NCBI RefSeq assembly: GCF_008000775.2
Contig: NZ_CP042905.2
Location: 990,001-1,022,000, forward strand
Source: Promethearchaeum syntrophicum
GTDB taxonomy: Archaea; Asgardarchaeota; Lokiarchaeia; Sigyniarchaeales; Promethearchaeaceae
Direction of reading: 5' to 3'
Length of the DNA: 32,000 nucleotides
This document shows, piece by piece, positions 864-27,271 of the stretch; positions within the stretch are counted from its first letter, which is position 1, and each line of letters opens with the position of its first letter. A model generated the notes under the pieces. That model was not told where the DNA came from and ran no database searches. It was given only the letters and a program-made list of their open reading frames with translations. A program made the position numbers and the translations under genes.

Positions 864-936
864 TAGGGACGAAGAGAGTTGAACTCTTGACATCCACGGT
901 GTGAGCGTGGCGAAATAACCACTAGTCTACGCCCCT
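864..936 (-). tRNA. tRNA-Val (anticodon CAC), no intron, CCA not encoded
   Basis: Reverse-strand cloverleaf read by eye. Acceptor AGGGGCG/CGUCCCU, U8, D-loop AGUGGUUA. Anticodon stem CCACG/CGUGG with loop CU-CAC-AC. 5-nt variable loop, T-arm AAGAG-UUCAACU-CUCUU, discriminator A. The D-stem (GACU/UUUC) has only two Watson-Crick pairs. Confidence 0.7.
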
Positions 937-13891: not shown

Positions 13892-14722
13892 TCACAAAGA
13901 TTTGAAACACCATTCTTCTTCTAAACAGCCACTGTGAATCATAAAGTACATATCCTCTAAGAAACGTGAGGCAGGAGCTCCATCTATCACACTGTGATCG
14001 AATGCAATGGTAGCTGCTAAACGTTCTCTTTCGACAATTTTTCCTTCTTTATCCAGTTCATAACCTCTAGAAATTGCCCCTATCCCAAGAGAAAAAGTAT
14101 GGGGTGTTAGATGAATCATCCAACCTAATTGATTTGCGGTTTTTGCCATCATCCCTGCAGCAGTTAATCCCACTGTCCCTAATAGTTTCTTTTTTAGCAA
14201 AGGGGTTGAAAAAATCTTATGAATTATTATCTTGCGTATAAAACGAGGAAATTTTGGGAAATATTTAATTAATTTCTTCCCCCCCTTATTACCGGTTGTT
14301 AATTCGATTTTTTTTGTTTGCGCTGCTCGAATTTCATTATGAATTTCTCTGAGTGTTTTTATATGTGCGTTACGAACAGTATAATTGACTGGTTTTTTAA
14401 CCCCATCTACATTTCTTTCAATATTTGTCATAACGTCTACCTCATCAAAAATAAAATATTCTTTCTTCTTATATCTCAGCGTATTTATTGGATATTTATG
14501 TTTTTCAACCACTCGAGCATAACAAGCAATGAGAAAGGCAGTAAAGCTGATTGATTCTCCAGATGTTTCCTTATGTTTTCTGAGTCTTTTCCTACATTCT
14601 GTAATATCTGCTGCGCCGAAGGCCCAAATGGTATGCATCTGTTTTGCCACAGAGCGGTAATCATCAATTGCTTTCGCCATAGGGCTTATTTTTTTAATAG
14701 TAACTGAATCTTTTTCTTTCAT
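13892..14722 (-). CDS. Stand-alone 2-oxoacid dehydrogenase E2-type acyltransferase catalytic domain (CAT-like), paralog A
   Basis: 276-aa ORF. The C-terminal catalytic motif is AFDHSVIDGAPASRFLEDM (DHxxxDG). The N-terminal part resembles the start of an E2 catalytic domain (ISFTAFLIACYARVVEKHKYPINT). It is too short to hold lipoyl or subunit-binding domains. Confidence 0.75.
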   Translation of the reverse strand: MKEKDSVTIKKISPMAKAIDDYRSVAKQMHTIWAFGAADITECRKRLRKHKETSGESISFTAFLIACYARVVEKHKYPINTLRYKKKEYFIFDEVDVMTNIERNVDGVKKPVNYTVRNAHIKTLREIHNEIRAAQTKKIELTTGNKGGKKLIKYFPKFPRFIRKIIIHKIFSTPLLKKKLLGTVGLTAAGMMAKTANQLGWMIHLTPHTFSLGIGAISRGYELDKEGKIVERERLAATIAFDHSVIDGAPASRFLEDMYFMIHSGCLEEEWCFKSL

Positions 14723-15025: not shown

Positions 15026-15856
15026 ATGAAGAAAAATATTTCCTTTATCGAGAAGAACATTAGCAGAAATCAACGATTAATTGATGACTATACAACAGAA
15101 GCAAAAAGTAAAAATTTGATTTGGGCTTTCACAGAGATGGACATAACTGAAGCTCAAAAGAAACTACGTGCTTATAAAGAAAATGGTGTAAAAATTAGTT
15201 TTACTGCATTTCTCATCGCTTGTTATGCGCGTTCAGCAGAAAAATATAAATATCCTATAAATACACTGCGCTATAAAAAAAAGAAATATATTACTTTTGA
15301 TGAAGTAGATGTAATGACAAATATTGAAAGAACTATAGATGGTGTAAAAAAACCAGTCAATTATACTGTACGGAATGCTCATAAAAAAACGTTAAGAGAA
15401 ATTAACGATGAGCTAAATGAAGCAAGAACAGTAAAAAAAGTAGCATTGACCACTGGTAATAAAGGGGGGAAAAAATTGCTGAAATTAGTTCCAAAACTAC
15501 CTAGGTTCCTCAGAAAAATAATTATTCATAAAACTTTTATAGATCCTTTCTTAAAAAAGAAATTATTGGGTACAATAGGTCTTTCGGCTGTGGGAATGTT
15601 TGGAAAAGATATAAATCAATTAGGTTGGATGATTCATATAACACCTCATACAATTTCTGTAGGTGTAGGCTCGATTGAGAAGAAATTTGAGATGCAAAAA
15701 GATGGTAATATTAAAGAACGTGAATTCTTAGCGGTCACAATCGCAATGGACCATGCTATAATAGACGGAGGGCCGGCTACGAGATTCTTTCGTGATTTTT
15801 ATCTTATGCTTAGAGACAATTGCTTGGAAGCAGACTGGTGTTTTAAATCATTGTAA
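15026..15856 (+). CDS. Stand-alone 2-oxoacid dehydrogenase E2-type acyltransferase catalytic domain (CAT-like), paralog B
   Basis: 276-aa ORF of the same length as paralog A. About two thirds of positions are identical by eye, for example ISFTAFLIACYAR, YPINTLRYKKK, FDEVDVMTNIER, DGVKKPVNYTVRNAH, TTGNKGGKKL, NQLGWMIH and WCFKSL at the C-terminus. Catalytic motif AMDHAIIDGGPATRFF. Confidence 0.75.
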   Translation: MKKNISFIEKNISRNQRLIDDYTTEAKSKNLIWAFTEMDITEAQKKLRAYKENGVKISFTAFLIACYARSAEKYKYPINTLRYKKKKYITFDEVDVMTNIERTIDGVKKPVNYTVRNAHKKTLREINDELNEARTVKKVALTTGNKGGKKLLKLVPKLPRFLRKIIIHKTFIDPFLKKKLLGTIGLSAVGMFGKDINQLGWMIHITPHTISVGVGSIEKKFEMQKDGNIKEREFLAVTIAMDHAIIDGGPATRFFRDFYLMLRDNCLEADWCFKSL

Positions 15857-19601: not shown

Positions 19602-20885
19602 TCAAGGAATAGGATATACAATAAAGAAAAAATACCTTGAAAATAAGAAGAATACATAGAATCCAACCGCTAAAATAAGCAAGATTTTATAGATGATGCC
19701 ATAGATTTTATTTTCTTTAATTTTTTTATAGAATTTAAATTCTATAGTTTGCCAAATAATTCCTCCGGGAATAGTTATAAGAAGGTTGAGGGGATAATAC
19801 CATAGATAATCAATCGGATGTGAATCAAAACCATTCTCTAAACTGAACCAGAAATGATAAGCGATTGAGAAATATAATATTTGGAATAATAAAATATGAT
19901 AGGTTGATCTACTGATTTTTTTTATTATCTTACTAAATTTATTATCTAGTTTTTTCGGAAAAATCTTTAATACTATTAGAAACAGAAAAGCACTGTAGGG
20001 AAATGAGAGAAAATGATAATCTCCCCCAATCCATCCTAAACCAATTACATACATAAAATTATATAATTGATAAAAACCGTATTGTGCAAAAATAATTAAA
20101 TAAAGTAAACTTATTGGCAGCAGAATCCAGAAAATTATAGTTACCATTGATGAAATTTCATTTCCCATTGATAAAATTTCATGATCTTCAGAGATCCAAA
20201 GCCCCATCCCAATACCTGAGAACAAATAAAAAATATGAGTTGTGAAAAACATTTTCGTGAAGAACCAACCATCAATATAAATATTATAAGATAAAATATG
20301 CATGAACCACTCAATTAGAAAACAGAAAATAAACGTTGCTATTGGGGCATTTTTAAAGCAGATATATAATAATGGAAAGACTAAAATAGACCCAAAAAGC
20401 GCAGGAATGAACCACATACCAGGTCCCCATAAAAAGGTAAAACCAAGAAAACGTAATCCCTCCAAATCATATGGCCATACTTCAATTATATCAGGTTGGA
20501 AAACATAATAAACTAGCAGAAATATAATTGTCTGGATAAAATATAGAATAATATATGGGATAATATATCTTTTCATTTTCAATATGAAATATTCCTTTGA
20601 ATAGGCTTCTTTTAATGTAGTAATTCCTTTTTCTTTGAAGGAAATCCCTAAATTAAATCCCATAACGATAATAAATCCTGGAATAGCAATCCTTTCCCAC
20701 AAAGGTGACCCAAATTGAACCAAAAAATCATGGGTTGTCGAATGATCTAAAATCACTAAGAAAATCATCCACGCTTTCATTATATCTACTTGAAAAAAAT
20801 TTTTCCCAGATTTTAGGTCCCCATTAGAATCTAGATCATTTTCTGAATTCAAATCATTTTGAGATATTTCTAATTTCTTGTCCAT
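19602..20885 (-). CDS. Membrane acyltransferase (acyltransferase-3 / HGSNAT-like family), tandem paralog B
   Basis: 427-aa polytopic ORF. The VDIMKAWMIFLVILDHS segment resembles the conserved first TM motif of acyltransferase-3 proteins (lD.lRg.a...Vv..H). It is highly similar to the 21062-22330 ORF. Confidence 0.5.
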   Translation of the reverse strand: MDKKLEISQNDLNSENDLDSNGDLKSGKNFFQVDIMKAWMIFLVILDHSTTHDFLVQFGSPLWERIAIPGFIIVMGFNLGISFKEKGITTLKEAYSKEYFILKMKRYIIPYIILYFIQTIIFLLVYYVFQPDIIEVWPYDLEGLRFLGFTFLWGPGMWFIPALFGSILVFPLLYICFKNAPIATFIFCFLIEWFMHILSYNIYIDGWFFTKMFFTTHIFYLFSGIGMGLWISEDHEILSMGNEISSMVTIIFWILLPISLLYLIIFAQYGFYQLYNFMYVIGLGWIGGDYHFLSFPYSAFLFLIVLKIFPKKLDNKFSKIIKKISRSTYHILLFQILYFSIAYHFWFSLENGFDSHPIDYLWYYPLNLLITIPGGIIWQTIEFKFYKKIKENKIYGIIYKILLILAVGFYVFFLFSRYFFFIVYPIP

Positions 20886-21061: not shown

Positions 21062-22330
21062 TCAAGCTGCTGGAATTGGAAAAACTATGAAGAAAATGTA
21101 TCTTGAAAATAAGAAAAACACGTAGAATCCAACCGCTAAAATAAGTAAGATTTTATATGTTATGCCAAAGATTTTATTTTCTTTAATTTTTTTATAGAAT
21201 TTTGATTCCAAAGTATGCCAAATAATTCCTCCGGGAATGGTAATAAGAAGGTTGAGTGGATAATACCACAAGTAATCAATTGGATGCAAATCGAAACCAT
21301 CAGCAATAGAGAACCAGAAATGATAAGCGATTGAGAAATATAGTATTTGAAACAATAGAATGTGATAGGTTGATCTACTGATTTTTTTTATTATCTTACT
21401 AAAGGTATTATTTGGATCCTTGGGAAATACCTTCAAAACTAATAAAAATAAAACAGCACTGTAGGGAAATGAGAGGAAATTATAATCTCCACTAATCCAC
21501 CCTAAACCGACCTGATACATTGCTACTCTTAAATTATAGAAACCGACAACGGCATAAATGATTAAATAAATCAAGCTTAAAGGTAGTAGAATCCAGGTAA
21601 TAATCACATTTCGAGGTGAATTTATTTCATAATCATCGGAGATCCAAAGCCCCATGCCGACACCAGAAAACATATAGAATATATGAGTTGAAAAAAACTG
21701 CCTCGTAACCCAGGGTTCAAAATATATATTGAAAGCTAATCTATGCATGATCCATTCAATAATAAAACAAGCAACAAAAGTTGCTATTGGGGTTTTTTTA
21801 TAACAAATATATAATAAAGGAAAGACCAAAATTGACCCGAACAGCGCAGGAATGAACCACATACCTGGACCGTAAAAAGGGGTATATCCTAACATCATAT
21901 ATTCTGAATAATAATAAGGTGCAACTTCAATCATTTCTGGTTGGAAAATAACATTAACAAATAAAAATATAATTGTTTGGAACAAATACAGAATTATATA
22001 AGGGATTATATATCTTTTCATCTTGGAAACAAAATAATCCTTGGAATACGCTTCTTTTAATGTAGTAATCCCTTTTTTTTTGAAGGAAATTCCCAAATTG
22101 AACCCCATTATTACAATAAATCCTGGAATAGCAATTCTCTCCCATAATGGTGACCCAAATTGAATCATAAAATCATGGGTGGTCGAATGATCTAAAATAA
22201 CCAAGAAAATCATCCATGCTTTCATTATATCTACTTGAAAATAATTTTTCCCGGATTTTAGATCAATATCAGATTTTAGGCCATTCTCTGATTTTAATTC
22301 ATTTTCGGAAACTTCCAACTTTTCGTCCAT
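21062..22330 (-). CDS. Membrane acyltransferase (acyltransferase-3 / HGSNAT-like family), tandem paralog A
   Basis: 422-aa polytopic ORF with the same N-terminal motif VDIMKAWMIFLVILDHS. Long runs are identical to paralog B (ISRSTYHILLFQILYFSIAYHFWFS, HPIDYLWYYPLNLLITIPGGIIW, YKILLILAVGFYVFFLFSRY). About 45 nt upstream of both start codons is also similar. Confidence 0.5.
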   Translation of the reverse strand: MDEKLEVSENELKSENGLKSDIDLKSGKNYFQVDIMKAWMIFLVILDHSTTHDFMIQFGSPLWERIAIPGFIVIMGFNLGISFKKKGITTLKEAYSKDYFVSKMKRYIIPYIILYLFQTIIFLFVNVIFQPEMIEVAPYYYSEYMMLGYTPFYGPGMWFIPALFGSILVFPLLYICYKKTPIATFVACFIIEWIMHRLAFNIYFEPWVTRQFFSTHIFYMFSGVGMGLWISDDYEINSPRNVIITWILLPLSLIYLIIYAVVGFYNLRVAMYQVGLGWISGDYNFLSFPYSAVLFLLVLKVFPKDPNNTFSKIIKKISRSTYHILLFQILYFSIAYHFWFSIADGFDLHPIDYLWYYPLNLLITIPGGIIWHTLESKFYKKIKENKIFGITYKILLILAVGFYVFFLFSRYIFFIVFPIPAA

Positions 22331-22440: not shown

Positions 22441-24153
22441 GTGTCAAATAAAGATGAATCAAAAGAAACAAACAGTGTGAAAGAAAGCCCTAAAGAAAAA
22501 GACGCAACAAAAGATTTAAAGGAAATTAAGGATATAAGGGATGAAATTGATAAAAATTTGCGAGAAGTAAAAGTTTCTCTTGAAGAAAGTGATACTATTG
22601 GAAAAGATATACAAGAGGAAATGATTCTTTCTGAGAAAAAAATAAAGGAATCAATTAAAACTAAAAATCACCAATTAAAAGAAATTGAAAAATTAATTAA
22701 AGACCAGCAAGAGAAACTTGATAATATTAATGATAAGATATCGGGAATGGAATCTCTGCACGAACAACAAACTGAACGTGTCAATCAAGTAAAAAATGAA
22801 TTAGGAACATTAGAAAAAGAAAAATCAAATCTTGAAGAATTAAAAGATAAATTGAACAAAAAAGTAATAGAACTAAATAACCAAATTTCATTACAAGAAC
22901 AATCTTTTGATAAAGTAGATTCAAATTTACAGACCAAAAATATTGAATTTAAAGAAATGGAAGAGAAATTTGAAAAAATAAATTCCGAATATCAAGAAAA
23001 ACAAAATATTATTGATAATCTCGATCGTGAACATATTGAGCAAAAAGAAAAACTTGTTGATTTTAAGAACCAAATTAAAGAAAAAGACGATGAATTAACA
23101 AAAATTAAGGAATCTCTTGAATTAAGAGAGAAATATAAGCTAGATCTTGATAAAAAAATATCAGATAGAACACAAACCCAACAAATGTTATCTCAGAAAC
23201 GAGAAAACCTCACTCTAAAAATTTCAGAGCTCGAAACAATAGCTGATGAAAAAAATACAAGAATCGAAAAATTAGATGATATTCTTGATGAAAAGAAAGC
23301 ATTTAATGAAAGTATCGAGAGAGACGCCATTGCTGCTCAAGAAAAGCTGAAAACGATAAAAACAGAAATCGAAGAAAAAGATGACGAGCTTTCAAAATTG
23401 AAAGAAAATCTTGATATGAGAGAAAAATATTACGAAAATTTGGAGCAAAAGATAACAGATCACACTGAATTATATCAAACTATTGAAAATAAATATCGAG
23501 ATCTACTGAAATTAATTCCCGAACAAGAAAAGCAAAGTCAAAAATTAAAAGAAGATATTGAAAAAATCGAAAAGGAATATGAAACCAGCAATTCAAAATT
23601 AGAAAGATTAAATGAAAAAATTGATGTTCAAAAAAGTTCATTAACAAAAATCAATGAGAAAATCGAAGGTAATGATGTTTTAATAACGCAAAAAGAGAAA
23701 CGTTTAGAAGAATTAGATGCAACTTACCTAAACACACAAAATGAAAAGGATAAACTCGAAAATCAATATAATCTTTTAAAAGAAAGAATTGAAGATGGTA
23801 ATGAAGAATTAAATTTCAACCAAAAACAGAAGAAAAATTCTGAGAAAATGTTGAAAGAAGCTGAAACAAACCTTGAGAATTTAAGAAAGAAGCTTTTAAC
23901 AATGGAAAAAAATATTAGAGAAGCGGAAGCAAGAATCCAAGAAAGCATGGTTTTAACTCGCATCAGGAAAATTGCAAAGATTTATGGAGGGGCGGCATTC
24001 ATTATAGGTTTAGTGATATTTCTGTTTGGTCTAACCAGTTCCTTTCTTCAGCCCCTTCTTCCCGATTTATTTATTGCACAAATGAACACATTTCTTATGA
24101 TTTCTATGGGTTTACTTGTCTTTATTTCGGGTTTATTACAATTAAGTACCTAA
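22441..24153 (+). CDS. Long coiled-coil protein with two C-terminal transmembrane helices
   Basis: 570-aa ORF with a GTG start. About 500 aa of Glu/Lys/Leu-rich heptad-like sequence contains an internal ~45-aa duplication. The C-terminus is hydrophobic: AAFIIGLVIFLFGLTSSFL ... FLMISMGLLVFISGLLQL. Confidence 0.6.
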   Translation: MSNKDESKETNSVKESPKEKDATKDLKEIKDIRDEIDKNLREVKVSLEESDTIGKDIQEEMILSEKKIKESIKTKNHQLKEIEKLIKDQQEKLDNINDKISGMESLHEQQTERVNQVKNELGTLEKEKSNLEELKDKLNKKVIELNNQISLQEQSFDKVDSNLQTKNIEFKEMEEKFEKINSEYQEKQNIIDNLDREHIEQKEKLVDFKNQIKEKDDELTKIKESLELREKYKLDLDKKISDRTQTQQMLSQKRENLTLKISELETIADEKNTRIEKLDDILDEKKAFNESIERDAIAAQEKLKTIKTEIEEKDDELSKLKENLDMREKYYENLEQKITDHTELYQTIENKYRDLLKLIPEQEKQSQKLKEDIEKIEKEYETSNSKLERLNEKIDVQKSSLTKINEKIEGNDVLITQKEKRLEELDATYLNTQNEKDKLENQYNLLKERIEDGNEELNFNQKQKKNSEKMLKEAETNLENLRKKLLTMEKNIREAEARIQESMVLTRIRKIAKIYGGAAFIIGLVIFLFGLTSSFLQPLLPDLFIAQMNTFLMISMGLLVFISGLLQLST

Positions 24154-24208: not shown

Positions 24209-26074
24209 TTGTATTCGAAAAATATGCTAAATGAAATTATTACAATTCTTGAAAATGAAGGATATATATCTAATGATCAGTTTGACTCTGTTCTCCGATA
24301 TTCAATTATCAAAGATCCAGAGTTCACTTTAATTTTAGGAGCTAAATTACCCATTAAAATTCCGATATTAAACAAGCCTCCCATTGAGCTAGTATCGTTC
24401 TATCCCTCAATTTGTATTCGTCCACGTCGATTAGATGATAGTTTTCTAACTATGGTTCGTTATTTAGCTGCTTCGTTTAAAGAAGCAATGATAATTAATT
24501 TAGAACCTTATAAGTATGATTTTAATATCGACAATTATAAATCTCAAATATCTGAATTGGTGCAAAAATTGTACCCTAATGAGAGTAATTTTGAACCTGA
24601 AGCACTAAAAAGTGAAAAAGAAGTAATCCTTACAATTAGAAACAATATTTTGAGAGATTATGATACTTTTGAAAATAGTTATATGAAAATATCACAAGAT
24701 GTTTTTGATATTTATCGTGATTTTCATCTTCTACCTACGGAACAATTACCTCCTGAACTTGATGAGGGTTTTCCTCGTAATCGACGTAATTGGGTTGTAA
24801 TTTTTAAGAAAGATAGTCCTGATGAATATTTAATGGAAGAACCAGGTTGTCTCACTTATTGGCGAGATTTTATTCATAAAAACGTATGGATCCGAACTGG
24901 ACTAGAAAGTTATAGTGTTAATATTTGGTATGAAGCATTTAAGGACCAGAACTTCAAGTTAAATTATCTATTTTATGATTGGATTATATACTGTCGTGGT
25001 TTAATAAAGAAAATTATCGAACCTATCTTGGATCAAATGCAATTTGAAGCGGGTTTACTCAAATCTTTTAGCGAAATTCGATTGTTAAAGGAATACCTCT
25101 CAAAAAATGGTTCATCAGCATTATTTTTACCCAGAATTATCTATGAAAATCTTAATTCACCTGAAAAAGATACAAGTGAACGCTTTCTATTTCAAGGGGC
25201 ACCTTGTTCTCTAGAAGAAATGAGTGCTGTTGAAGATTTTCGGTTAGCAGAATTGTTTGAAAGAAAGGGAAACTATAATAGATCTCTCGAATTACTTCTT
25301 AACGCAAAGAAAAAGCTGAAAAAATTCCATCATATTAATGGCCAGATTAAAGTAATATTCAAATTAAACGATCTTGTAATAAAGGACAAAGATTATAATA
25401 AATCGGTTGAATTTCTTAGTGAGGCTTTAGAACTATCAAAAAGTGGACAAGTGTCTGTTGTTAACATTGTTAATATCCATCTTTCTTTGGGTTATTCTTA
25501 CGCCCTTGGAAATTCTGCCTTTAAATCGGAAACTCATAACCAGATTGTAAAAACCTTCTTAAATTCTCTCCCCTCAACAAAACAAAATCAGAATTTAATT
25601 TGCCGTATGTATTTGGAATTTGCAAAATTAAACTTAATACAAGAGGAATATGAAGAAGCAGACGCAAATTTCAAGCAACTATTAAAACATATAAAGAAAA
25701 ATTCTCCCTATGAGTTTTTATACTATTTCGAACGCGCCCATTATTATAATTCCGTGAAAAACGAGACGAAACACTATCTTTCTCTAAAAAAGGCAATTGA
25801 AATTGATAAAGGACCTCTGATTGAAAGAATTTCTGCAAATTTCGAGTTGGGAAAATTCTATCTATACACAAAACAAGATTCTGAGAAAGCTATTGATTAC
25901 CTCACTAAAACTCTAACAATGATTACCGATATAGATGTTGAAAGTCTGAAGATAAAAGTTAAGACTTATGAAATTATTGCTGATGCATACCGTGCACGAG
26001 ATTATGAAGAAGCAGCTCGTCAAGCATCTGAAGAAGCGGAAAAAATTCGAGAACGCTTAGACCGTATAAATTAA
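24209..26074 (+). CDS. Hypothetical protein with C-terminal TPR-like helical repeats
   Basis: 621-aa ORF, start at TTG 24209 or ATG 24224. The C-terminal ~270 aa shows TPR-like periodicity (AELFERKGNYNRSLELLLNA, YNKSVEFLSEALEL, EEYEEADANFKQLL, SEKAIDYLTKTL). I do not recognise the N-terminal ~330 aa. Confidence 0.5.
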   Translation: MYSKNMLNEIITILENEGYISNDQFDSVLRYSIIKDPEFTLILGAKLPIKIPILNKPPIELVSFYPSICIRPRRLDDSFLTMVRYLAASFKEAMIINLEPYKYDFNIDNYKSQISELVQKLYPNESNFEPEALKSEKEVILTIRNNILRDYDTFENSYMKISQDVFDIYRDFHLLPTEQLPPELDEGFPRNRRNWVVIFKKDSPDEYLMEEPGCLTYWRDFIHKNVWIRTGLESYSVNIWYEAFKDQNFKLNYLFYDWIIYCRGLIKKIIEPILDQMQFEAGLLKSFSEIRLLKEYLSKNGSSALFLPRIIYENLNSPEKDTSERFLFQGAPCSLEEMSAVEDFRLAELFERKGNYNRSLELLLNAKKKLKKFHHINGQIKVIFKLNDLVIKDKDYNKSVEFLSEALELSKSGQVSVVNIVNIHLSLGYSYALGNSAFKSETHNQIVKTFLNSLPSTKQNQNLICRMYLEFAKLNLIQEEYEEADANFKQLLKHIKKNSPYEFLYYFERAHYYNSVKNETKHYLSLKKAIEIDKGPLIERISANFELGKFYLYTKQDSEKAIDYLTKTLTMITDIDVESLKIKVKTYEIIADAYRARDYEEAARQASEEAEKIRERLDRIN

Positions 26075-26111: not shown

Positions 26112-26334
26112 CTTTAAATATGCAGTGTATAGACTATTAATAATGTTGTGATTTTTCCAATTTTATAATCAAAAAAAGATAAGATTCCCCTTTTTTAAAG
26201 ACAATTTTTAAAAATATGAACATTGCTTTATATTTGAAAAAAAAAAAATTCCCATAATTCAATTTCTGTAATATAAGATCTGCAATTTAATAGAATCTGT
26301 GATAATACAGTACCAATTGAACTCGAACAACAAG

Positions 26335-26344
26335 TATTTTAAAG
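26335..26344 (+). promoter_or_regulatory. TATA-like box (TATTTTAAAG) centred about 27 nt upstream of the candidate RNA 5' end
   Basis: Read directly. Its spacing to the first base of the closing helix (26367) matches archaeal TATA-to-TSS geometry. Confidence 0.35.
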
Positions 26345-26366
26345 AGAGTTGGTTAAGTTTAATTTA

Positions 26367-26521
26367 AGAGCCGGAATCTATTTTTCAACTTATTATGAGT
26401 TGTTGAGACATGTCTCATTATATCGAAGTCTGACTTCGGATTCCTTATCTTCGCTATGTTGGCGAAGAACTCCCTCTTTTTATTTTTACATCAGGGGTAA
26501 GCAATTACCCCCTCCGGCTCT
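26367..26521 (+). ncRNA. Candidate structured non-coding RNA of unknown class (~155 nt multi-helix element)
   Basis: A perfect 9-bp closing helix joins AGAGCCGGA (26367-26375) to TCCGGCTCT (26513-26521). It encloses four local hairpins: TGAGACA/TGTCTCA (26404-26417); CGAAG-UCUGA-CUUCG (26424-26438); TCTTCGC-N7-GCGAAGA (26448-26468); GGGGTAA-GCAA-TTACCCC (26494-26511). The last has a GNRA tetraloop only on the + strand. T5 runs follow at 26523-26527 and 26533-26537. Confidence 0.5.
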
Positions 26522-26608
26522 ATTTTTCTTTCTTTTTCCCAACATTTTAATAAAGAAATTATCCAAAATTAAATAAAAAATAAAAAAAACTAGGAATAAT
26601 TTAAAGTG

Positions 26609-27271
26609 TTAATAATACCACCCAAGGATTCCTGCAATGACATTCATTATAATTGCTACACCATAAATACAACCGATTGCAATTAATCTCTTTTTCATGG
26701 ATTTGATTTTGAGAACTAAAATACATGCCACATAAAAATGGAAATAACCAAAAAGAAAGATTAACCATACACCGGCGAAAGATCTATTCCAAAATGGATA
26801 AGTCCAAGTAAGAAGACCCCCAATGTTTAAAAAGATTTCAATAACAACGCAAAAAATTGCATATCCCAATCCCCAAAACCATCGATTATTAATGCCAAAT
26901 ATCTTCTCATTTTTGTCTTCTGATATAGTTTTTCCGTAAATTAGTCCACTAATCAAAAACATGAAAATTATTTCAACGTTCCATCCAACCATTACTCGAA
27001 GGGCAGTAGGTCCAGGGGTTGTCCAAAAAGCTTGATCTTGAGTTAGCCACGCTACCCAACCATTCCAAGTTTCGTTGAAAAAATCCATTCCGAACAGTGT
27101 TAAGCCGCAAACAATTACATCCCAATTTCCTGATTTGCGTGCTTTCTTGATTTCTGTTACATAGATGTAAAATACGAGAGCTAATAATGGTATAACAATC
27201 CAACCCATTTGTGTTAAATCACGCAATCCATCCAAAGCTGCTTGAGTATCTGTACTTCCATACGGTTCCAT
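26609..27271 (-). CDS. Integral membrane protein, unknown function (Trp/Gly-rich TM segments)
   Basis: 220-aa ORF with about six hydrophobic segments. I recognise no family. Confidence 0.5.
   Translation of the reverse strand: MEPYGSTDTQAALDGLRDLTQMGWIVIPLLALVFYIYVTEIKKARKSGNWDVIVCGLTLFGMDFFNETWNGWVAWLTQDQAFWTTPGPTALRVMVGWNVEIIFMFLISGLIYGKTISEDKNEKIFGINNRWFWGLGYAIFCVVIEIFLNIGGLLTWTYPFWNRSFAGVWLIFLFGYFHFYVACILVLKIKSMKKRLIAIGCIYGVAIIMNVIAGILGWYY

Follow-up and report, generated by a model that had tools for sequence, protein, structure and literature searches.

Does the 534-bp gap between two protein-coding genes of Promethearchaeum syntrophicum MK-D1 (family Promethearchaeaceae) contain a gene of its own? 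The gap lies in a 32-kb stretch of contig NZ_CP042905.2, the whole of which is referred to here as the window, and a first-pass annotation had proposed a novel structured RNA within it. The present analysis indicates that positions 26367-26521 of the plus strand are very probably a gene in their own right, encoding a structured non-coding RNA that is conserved in the Promethearchaeaceae (Lokiarchaea). The stems of this RNA drift freely through compensatory changes, while the unpaired strands of its junction, above all the pyrimidine tract CUCCCUCUUUUUAUUUUUA, are nearly fixed. The RNA family is absent from Rfam, is undescribed in the literature searched (for Asgard and Lokiarchaeal small RNAs and for the motif) and is placed in no functional class so far. 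As a general kind, the stand-alone structured small RNA has precedent.

The two strands of the closing helix P1, AGAGCCGGA and TCCGGCTCT, are exactly reverse-complementary over 9 bp, as the first-pass annotation had described. The local stems that it placed inside this helix also exist, numbering five (hairpins hp1-hp5, Table 1) and not four. The 5-bp form of hp2 proposed earlier would leave a loop of 2 nt; a stem of 4 bp with a flanking U-A is realistic. Both the minimum-energy and the centroid structures computed with RNAfold reproduce exactly the architecture of P1 plus hp1-hp5, with an energy of -54.3 kcal/mol compared with -30.9 +/- 3.8 kcal/mol for 200 dinucleotide-shuffled sequences (z = -6.1). 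The minus strand of the element folds well too (z = -5.5). Thus, the strand is not fixed by the folding energy alone. The stems are richer in G+C than the spacer, as had been claimed, with a modest difference (0.33-0.39 in the stems vs. 0.17-0.29 in the flanks).

The element was recovered from 13 other distinct lineages, comprising eight close Promethearchaeum lineages and five distant ones, including Lokiarchaeum ossiferum. The RNA occurs in at least two genera of the Promethearchaeaceae and in several unclassified metagenomic lineages, with a length of 113 to ~220 nt across the family. Homologues are designated here by locus numbers (L005 and so on). The close homologues were located at the syntenic loci of orthologues of the AF_1327-family membrane protein encoded downstream of the RNA (74-86% amino-acid identity), and an exact-pattern scan of representative genomes gave three further metagenome-assembled genomes (MAGs) of Promethearchaeum sp. 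A pattern scan of metagenomes returned four matches, of which one was a true sequence and three were G+C-rich false positives. The distant homologues came from a covariance model of the close group, which was run on the loci around distant orthologues (40-50% identity) of the tetratricopeptide repeat (TPR) protein encoded upstream of the RNA. The model gave one match per distant locus, with E values of 7e-9 to 5e-6 for L019, L044, L018, L017 and L043. The scores were 47 bits for L019/L020, 46 bits for L044 and 43 bits for L018, all from metagenomes, followed by 39 bits for L017 (the complete genome of L. ossiferum) and 35 bits for L043 (a MAG); the match in L042, also from a metagenome, is weaker (20 bits, E = 0.002). 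The distant homologues fold with z scores of -4.3 to -11.2. The common layout, from the 5′ to the 3′ end, is P1, a pyrimidine-rich linker (J1), hp1, YGAGAUU, one or more variable hairpins, CCCUY, hp4, CUCCCUCUUUUUAUUUU(U)A, the optional hp5 and the 3′ strand of P1. Comparison of the DNA of MK-D1 with that of L005 showed identities of 81% in the RNA gene and 79-81% in the flanking coding sequence; the corresponding values for L006 are 67% and 73%. In the spacer 3′ of the RNA, the identity falls to 60% (L005) and 24% (L006).

Nine distinct close sequences were aligned with MAFFT, and RNAalifold recovered the same six helices from this alignment (consensus energy of -45.7 kcal/mol), with compensatory double changes in 9 of the 38 pairs. 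Pairing is observed in 97.4% of the cells compared with 91.1% in shuffles, and double-change cells number 24 compared with 10.7. None of the 500 shuffles reaches the observed values, and slid registers pair in 35-48% of the cells. A core alignment of 13 lineages, registered by hand and by eye, shows pairing in 98.1% of the cells vs. 69.9% in shuffles (0/500 reach the observed values) and 31-45% in slid registers, with double changes in all 20 pairs. The safeguard that matters here is the shuffle control, which tests each 5′ arm for pairing with the 3′ arm of the same lineage as opposed to that of another. The compensatory changes seen among the 13 other lineages fall in P1, hp1, hp3, hp4 and hp5. 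G-U pairs occupy 19 of the 260 paired cells of the core alignment and would read A-C on the opposite strand. Thus, the G-U pairs in the relatives place the RNA on the plus strand, in agreement with the first-pass annotation.

Helix-by-helix comparisons showed how the variation is distributed. P1 is invariant inside the close group and occurs in five unrelated versions across the lineages, each of them complementary: AGAGCCGGA / UCCGGCUCU; AGUCGGG / CCCGGCU, extended by GGAA / UUCC or GGUA / UACC; GAGC-CGGCGAAC / GUUCGCCG-A-GCUC; GGAAGACUAGGGGG / CCCUCUGGUCUUCC; and GGUGGU-GGGGG-UGC / GCA-CCUCC-ACCACC. Six or more unrelated versions were found for each of hp1 and hp4, with double changes in all seven pairs of hp1 (13 sequences) and in all six pairs of hp4 (core alignment). 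The hp4 loop UAUGUUG is identical in MK-D1, L017 and L019 despite wholly different stems. The hp2 stem is invariant in the close group, and the GAGA(U) motif after hp1 is kept in all lineages; its partner is the local UCUC of hp2 in MK-D1, L017 and L044 and a UCUC in J1 in L018 and L042. In hp3, a G-C pair is changed to A-U in the L006 group. In place of this hairpin, L017, L019 and L044 carry an insertion of ~90-95 nt, and L018 has another hairpin. The GCAA-capped hairpin (hp5), which the first-pass annotation had singled out, is the least conserved part of the element and no functional hallmark. It is always a hairpin in the close group, with 5 to ~13 bp and loops of GCAA, CAAU, UCCG or UUCG, and is absent from the distant homologues (L017, L018, L019, L042, L043 and L044).

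Alternative pairings behave differently from these helices. The reuse of CGAAG/CTTCG, from which alternative folds had been proposed, is present between hp3 and hp4 in MK-D1; the alternative fold itself is not conserved, with zero double changes and with end pairs broken in five and in three of the nine close sequences. A helix of GGAAUC (P1/J1) with GAUUCC (J3, the linker between hp3 and hp4), which would compete with the top of P1, pairs in 94% of the close-group cells; it shows no covariation in the close group, and L019 and L044 have at best a weak form of it. A pseudoknot between AUGU of the hp4 loop and ACAU after the tract is not supported; judged by eye, it fits some lineages but fails in L005, L012 and L044.

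The most conserved part of the RNA is the pyrimidine tract, which goes unmentioned in the first-pass annotation and is unpaired in every fold computed. Its 17-base core, CCCUCUUUUUAUUUUUA, is exact in all homologues except for a single substitution in L016 and one missing U in L042. In all folds, the segment UUUUUAUUUUUA stays unpaired, with hp4 on one side and hp5 or P1 on the other, and forms a U-rich heptad flanked by helices; the L042 form is UUUUUAUUUUA, again one U shorter. Most of the J1 linker is the same throughout the close group, from which L005, L010, L011 and the L006 group deviate slightly; the counterparts of J1 in the distant lineages consist of CUA/CUC followed by U4-5. The tract is probably the working site of the RNA.

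Table 1. Features of the RNA gene and its surroundings (positions in the window; promoter and terminator assignments are putative)
Feature	Position	Strand	Sequence	Remarks
Conserved unstructured upstream DNA	26117-26335	+	GTGATAATACAG (block)	TTCCAA-type motifs; presumed regulatory
Promoter-like element	26326-26343	+	AACAACAAG (BRE-like, purine-rich); ATTTTAAA (TATA-like)	TATA-like box 26336-26343, ~27 nt before P1
RNA gene, P1 to P1′	26367-26521	+		~155 nt
P1, 5′ strand	26367-26375	+	AGAGCCGGA	Perfect 9 bp; five P1 sequences across lineages, all complementary
J1 linker	26376-26385	+	AUCUAUUUUU	Single-stranded, pyrimidine-rich
hp1	26386-26392 with 26396-26402	+	CAACUUA / UGAGUUG	7 bp including one G-U
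hp2	26404-26417; stem 26405-26408 with 26413-26416	+	U-GAGA-CAUG-UCUC-A	4 bp plus flanking U-A
hp3	26424-26429 with 26433-26438	+	CGAAGU-CUG-ACUUCG	6 bp; variable domain
J3 linker	26439-26448	+	GAUUCCUUAU	Single-stranded; distant counterpart CCCUY before hp4
hp4	26449-26454 with 26462-26467	+	CUUCGC-UAUGUUG-GCGAAG	6 bp; always directly upstream of the pyrimidine tract
Pyrimidine tract	26470-26488	+	CUCCCUCUUUUUAUUUUUA	Near-invariant, single-stranded, directly 3′ of hp4
hp5	26494-26500 with 26505-26511	+	GGGGUAA-GCAA-UUACCCC	7 bp; GCAA loop 26501-26504; optional, hypervariable
P1, 3′ strand	26513-26521	+	UCCGGCUCU	Complement of the P1 5′ strand
U/T-rich tract	26522-26537	+	AUUUUUCUUUCUUUUU	Presumed archaeal terminator
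TPR protein gene	24209-26074	+		621 aa; upstream side of the gap
AF_1327-family membrane protein gene	26609-27271	-		220 aa; convergent; downstream side of the gap
tRNA-Val(CAC)	864-936	-		Only Rfam match in the window

The surrounding elements suggest that the RNA would be transcribed from its own promoter, of the type with a TATA box and a B recognition element (BRE), and would end at the U-tract after P1. The 5′ end of the RNA probably lies at the 5′ strand of P1. Inspection for an independent transcription unit (BRE/TATA ~25-27 nt upstream plus oligo-T) found the sequence elements present. The TTTA of the TATA-like box and the AACA of the purine-rich element are invariant in the close group, and an A/T-rich box is located 26-27 nt upstream of the first P1 base in L017, L019, L018, L042, L043 and L044. 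A T4-5 run follows P1 after ~5-20 nt in all lineages. The TATA-like box at about -27 and the trailing oligo-T, both of which the first-pass annotation had pointed out, therefore keep their positions throughout. Further upstream, ~250 bp of DNA exhibit a column identity of ~73% among seven close lineages. No structure was found in this region, with a consensus fold of only -0.37 kcal/mol, and such conservation without structure fits regulatory DNA, not RNA. The upstream blocks are recognisable in L017 (9060-9130) and L019 (5990-6060). Repeated TTCCAA-type near-palindromes are observed there, TTGGAATATTTCCAA in L017 and the one-base variant TTGGAATGTTTCCAA in L019, and the counterpart of the block GTGATAATACAG in L017 is GTGATTTGTACTG. 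The upstream motifs look like transcription-factor binding sites of a regulated promoter.

The RNA is located 0.1-3.7 kb from an orthologue of the TPR gene DSAG12_01492 in all seven lineage groups (orthologues in L005, L006, L017-L020 and L042-L044), and the other neighbours differ. The TPR protein of the window is 100% identical to DSAG12_01492. The constant linkage suggests that the TPR protein is functionally tied to the RNA, and it may be part of the same ribonucleoprotein (RNP) or pathway. The AlphaFold model of the protein is confident (pLDDT 90.5) and consists of an N-terminal alpha/beta domain of ~330 aa and a C-terminal TPR solenoid. The N-terminal domain carries many invariant polar residues and has no Pfam match and no PADLOC match. 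A cis-acting leader or riboswitch was also considered. The gene on the downstream side runs convergently in MK-D1, L042 and L043, and other lineages have a different gene there; this inconstancy, often with convergent orientation, argues against such a role.

Other genes of the window showed features of their own. The gene before the TPR gene encodes a 570-aa protein (22441-24153, plus strand) with a long coiled coil and a C-terminal membrane segment and contains an internal repeat of ~95 nt (23072-23166 and 23366-23460); in L017 and L044, too, a similar long open reading frame (ORF) stands before the TPR gene. The AF_1327-family protein has hundreds of homologues at 62-67% identity. The few that are listed with a source name are attributed to MAGs of Desulfobacterales or Deltaproteobacteria, plus Promethearchaeota, a pattern that might stem from gene exchange among syntrophic partners or from contaminated bins. 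Two tandem paralogues on the minus strand (19602-20885 and 21062-22330; 427 and 422 aa) are 76-86% identical at the nucleotide level along most of the two genes and look like a recent duplication. Two divergent ORFs of 276 aa each (13892-14722, minus strand, and 15026-15856, plus strand) form a long inverted repeat with 73-78% complementarity.

What would such an RNA do? The explanation we favour, and consider fairly likely, is that the conserved structured RNA acts in trans, with the pyrimidine tract as its functional surface. The mode of action proposed here is more tentative and could well turn out otherwise. P1 pairs the 5′ and 3′ ends and encloses a multi-helix junction of hp1, the GAGA element (hp2), the hp3 domain, hp4 and the optional hp5. 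The helices would serve as a scaffold that displays the tract, together with J1 and J3 at the same junction, to a partner in trans. This partner would most likely be a protein with affinity for U-tracts or pyrimidine-rich RNA. The Sm-like proteins of archaea, which bind oligo-U, would be the first candidates to consider, since the AUUUUUA between two helices is reminiscent of an Sm site. Alternatively, the tract might pair with a purine-rich RNA of the form A5-N-A5-GAGGGAG. The tract is near-identical among lineages in which the neighbouring protein is only 40-45% identical, suggesting that the partner itself is highly constrained.

Several points weigh against a trans-acting RNA of this kind. 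The hand registration of the core alignment biases it toward pairing, for which the shuffle and slide controls are a partial remedy. The ends of the RNA and its promoter are predicted from the sequence alone. A U5-A-U5 stretch inside an archaeal gene is a termination signal, and the full-length form closed by P1 may thus be neither the sole nor the main product. The structure search with the TPR protein gave generic TPR scaffolds only, with no RNA-binding signature. Within the window, no convincing site complementary to the tract was found: its complement occurs in the RNA gene itself and, with three mismatches, at two further sites, one of which is antisense to the trailer of tRNA-Val. Mimicry of an anti-Shine-Dalgarno sequence was ruled out, since the MK-D1 genes of the window carry GGUGA, not GAGGG, before their start codons. 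The likeness to an Sm site is imperfect as well, with an A in place of the consensus G and with two U5 runs.

The alternative that survives best starts from this internal U5-A-U5. Here, hp4 with CUCCCUC and U5AU5 would form an attenuator, either a conditional terminator or a cleavage site for the archaeal RNA polymerase with aCPSF1/FttA, giving rise to two isoforms: a short RNA that lacks hp5 and the 3′ strand of P1, and a read-through RNA closed by P1. The ratio of the two, or the sequestration of a termination factor, would then be the function. As a full account this is improbable, although a short isoform ending at U5-A-U5 is a serious rival or complement to the trans-acting RNA. The 3′ trailer of tRNA-Val, GTCCCTATTTTTATTCTTA (852-870), matches the 19-mer tract save for three mismatches (17.6 bits with the covariance model, a weak score), and this likeness makes the tract terminator- or trailer-like in sequence. 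The 5′ strand of P1 can also pair with J3 instead, through the GGAAUC/GAUUCC helix. However, that helix does not covary, whereas P1 covaries strongly, indicating that the read-through form is under selection. Real terminators are degenerate, in contrast with the near-invariance of the tract.

The tract also resembles the rho-independent terminators of bacteria and phages. The 19-mer CTCCCTCTTTTTATTTTTA occurs verbatim in 21 viral contigs (L021-L041), with a family of related phages among them, mostly as the descending arm and U-tract (GAGGGAGCTTAGTCTCCCTC followed by a T-run) of phage rho-independent terminators, just before an AAGGAGG ribosome-binding site; this would also speak for termination at the tract. 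In the phage terminators, GAGGGAG pairs with CUCCCUC. The RNA, unlike these terminators, has no upstream GAGGGAG to pair with CUCCCUC, and its tract lies inside P1. The covariance model does not recognise the phage terminator loci as homologues, and no viral contig scores as a member of the family. A viral or mobile origin was thus rejected, and the presence of the 19-mer in the phage contigs is coincidence, not homology.

A cis-acting element of the TPR mRNA, in its 3′ untranslated region or between genes, could in principle account for the linkage to the TPR gene in all lineages through a role in stability or termination, with no independent gene. In MK-D1 and L019, the element follows the TPR gene at a distance of ~290-350 nt, and the RNA shares the strand of the TPR gene in these two and in most lineages. 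However, L042 and L043 have the RNA and the TPR gene on opposite strands, and genes on the opposite strand intervene between the two in L017 (one gene, ~3 kb) and L018 (three genes, ~3.6 kb). These strand flips and intervening genes, together with the constant spacing of a promoter-like box and the conservation of 250 bp further upstream, argue against the cis-acting element, which we regard as unlikely.

A more specific form of the trans-acting RNA is slightly less likely still. It holds that the RNA forms the core of an RNP peculiar to Asgard archaea, in which a ring of Sm-like proteins (LSm/SmAP) would assemble on the AUUUUUA-type site and the TPR protein would join. If true, this RNP would be an archaeal counterpart, and possibly a relative, of the eukaryotic Sm-class small nuclear RNPs. 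Like the Sm-class small nuclear RNAs (snRNAs) and the archaeal SmAP/LSm RNAs, the RNA has a short single-stranded AUUUUUA site between helices (the Sm consensus being RAU4-6GR). Judged by its sequence only, it is also a small RNA of stable appearance that would have a promoter of its own and a U-tract at its end, and the TATA box at -27 with conserved proximal and distal upstream elements would recall snRNA genes. Apart from the deviations from the Sm consensus given above, it differs from the snRNAs in the conserved CUCCCUC before the U5 runs, in lacking snRNA-specific sequences (e.g. ACAGAGA or complementarity to the 5′ splice site) and in having no detectable sequence homology with them.

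Comparisons with other stand-alone RNAs gave partial likenesses. Variable stems around an invariant single-stranded motif are shared with bacterial seed-bearing small RNAs (GcvB R1) and with sponges (CsrB/RsmZ), which are also encoded by stand-alone genes, and the pyrimidine motif CCCUY recurs in J3 and in the tract in the manner of CsrB/RsmZ-type repeats. Unlike these, the RNA has an archaeal host, and its closed multi-helix junction is far more elaborate. Y RNAs resemble it in the pairing of the ends in a terminal stem, the pyrimidine-rich and mostly unpaired interior and the 3′ U-tract; however, it has no bulged helix motif for Ro binding and no match to the Rfam models of Y RNA or YrlA. 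Similar to HgcC and SscA, orphan archaeal RNAs that screens of AT-rich genomes for G+C content or covariation brought to light, it is a structured stretch enriched in G+C within AT-rich intergenic DNA and is restricted to one lineage, but it matches neither of those Rfam families in sequence or structure and has another architecture.

Could the RNA belong to a known class of RNP RNAs (H/ACA, C/D, signal recognition particle (SRP), RNase P or tRNA-like) but have diverged so far that the Rfam models miss it? This is very unlikely. Rfam 15 gave no match for MK-D1 or the distant homologues at gathering or permissive thresholds, in line with the first-pass annotation, which saw no known class; the best score in the region is 16.7 bits compared with a threshold of 50. 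No match to any of these classes was obtained even at E <= 10 on three homologues (MK-D1, L017 and L018), and the length of 113-220 nt and the architecture do not fit RNase P RNA or SRP RNA. P1 of L017 (AAGUCGGG / CCCGGCU) loosely recalls helix P4 of RNase P as found in E. coli. ARAGORN and the Rfam tRNA model were negative on the element. Box C/D RNAs would need the RUGAUGA/CUGA pair, of which RUGAUGA is absent, and the sole CUGA belongs to the hp3 loop and has disappeared from L005, L012 and the L006 group; a K-turn and the conserved regions GGAAAGUCC and of the ACAGAA type are likewise absent. An ACA after the tract in most lineages recalls box H/ACA RNAs. However, it is not invariant (AAC in L018) and comes after a single strand of ~20 nt, not after a stem or 3′ of a pocket hairpin, and the hairpins are short and uninterrupted, without a pocket.

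That the locus is instead a DNA-level element (a remnant of a miniature inverted-repeat transposable element (MITE) or transposon, a recombination site or an origin-like repeat) or a 75-aa protein gene, as the 9-bp terminal inverted repeat and the ORF at 26349-26576 might suggest, is hardly credible: the element is syntenic and single-copy (one in the window and one per syntenic locus examined), its G-U pairs are valid on one strand only, its hairpins vary in sequence yet remain paired, and the ORF (plus strand), which the first-pass annotation had rightly thought spurious, has no Pfam match and is broken by indels and stops in relatives. Gene-caller ORFs over the RNA gene also occur in L018 (9445-9714, minus strand, 89 aa) and L043 (6731-6844, plus strand, 37 aa), and all ORFs annotated over it are probably spurious.

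Few cultured organisms are closer to the eukaryotes than the Lokiarchaea, and to our knowledge their non-coding RNAs are almost uncharted apart from rRNA, tRNA, SRP RNA and RNase P RNA. The combination of strong covariation, a multi-helix junction and a nearly unchanging single strand is the evidence usual for important RNAs. A practical use of the finding is that it flags the spurious ORF annotations (75, 89 and 37 aa) over the RNA gene. Both P. syntrophicum MK-D1 and L. ossiferum are culturable and both carry the RNA, making it a concrete experimental target. The finding also raises an evolutionary question, namely whether Sm-type or other RNPs in Asgard archaea foreshadow the eukaryotic ones.

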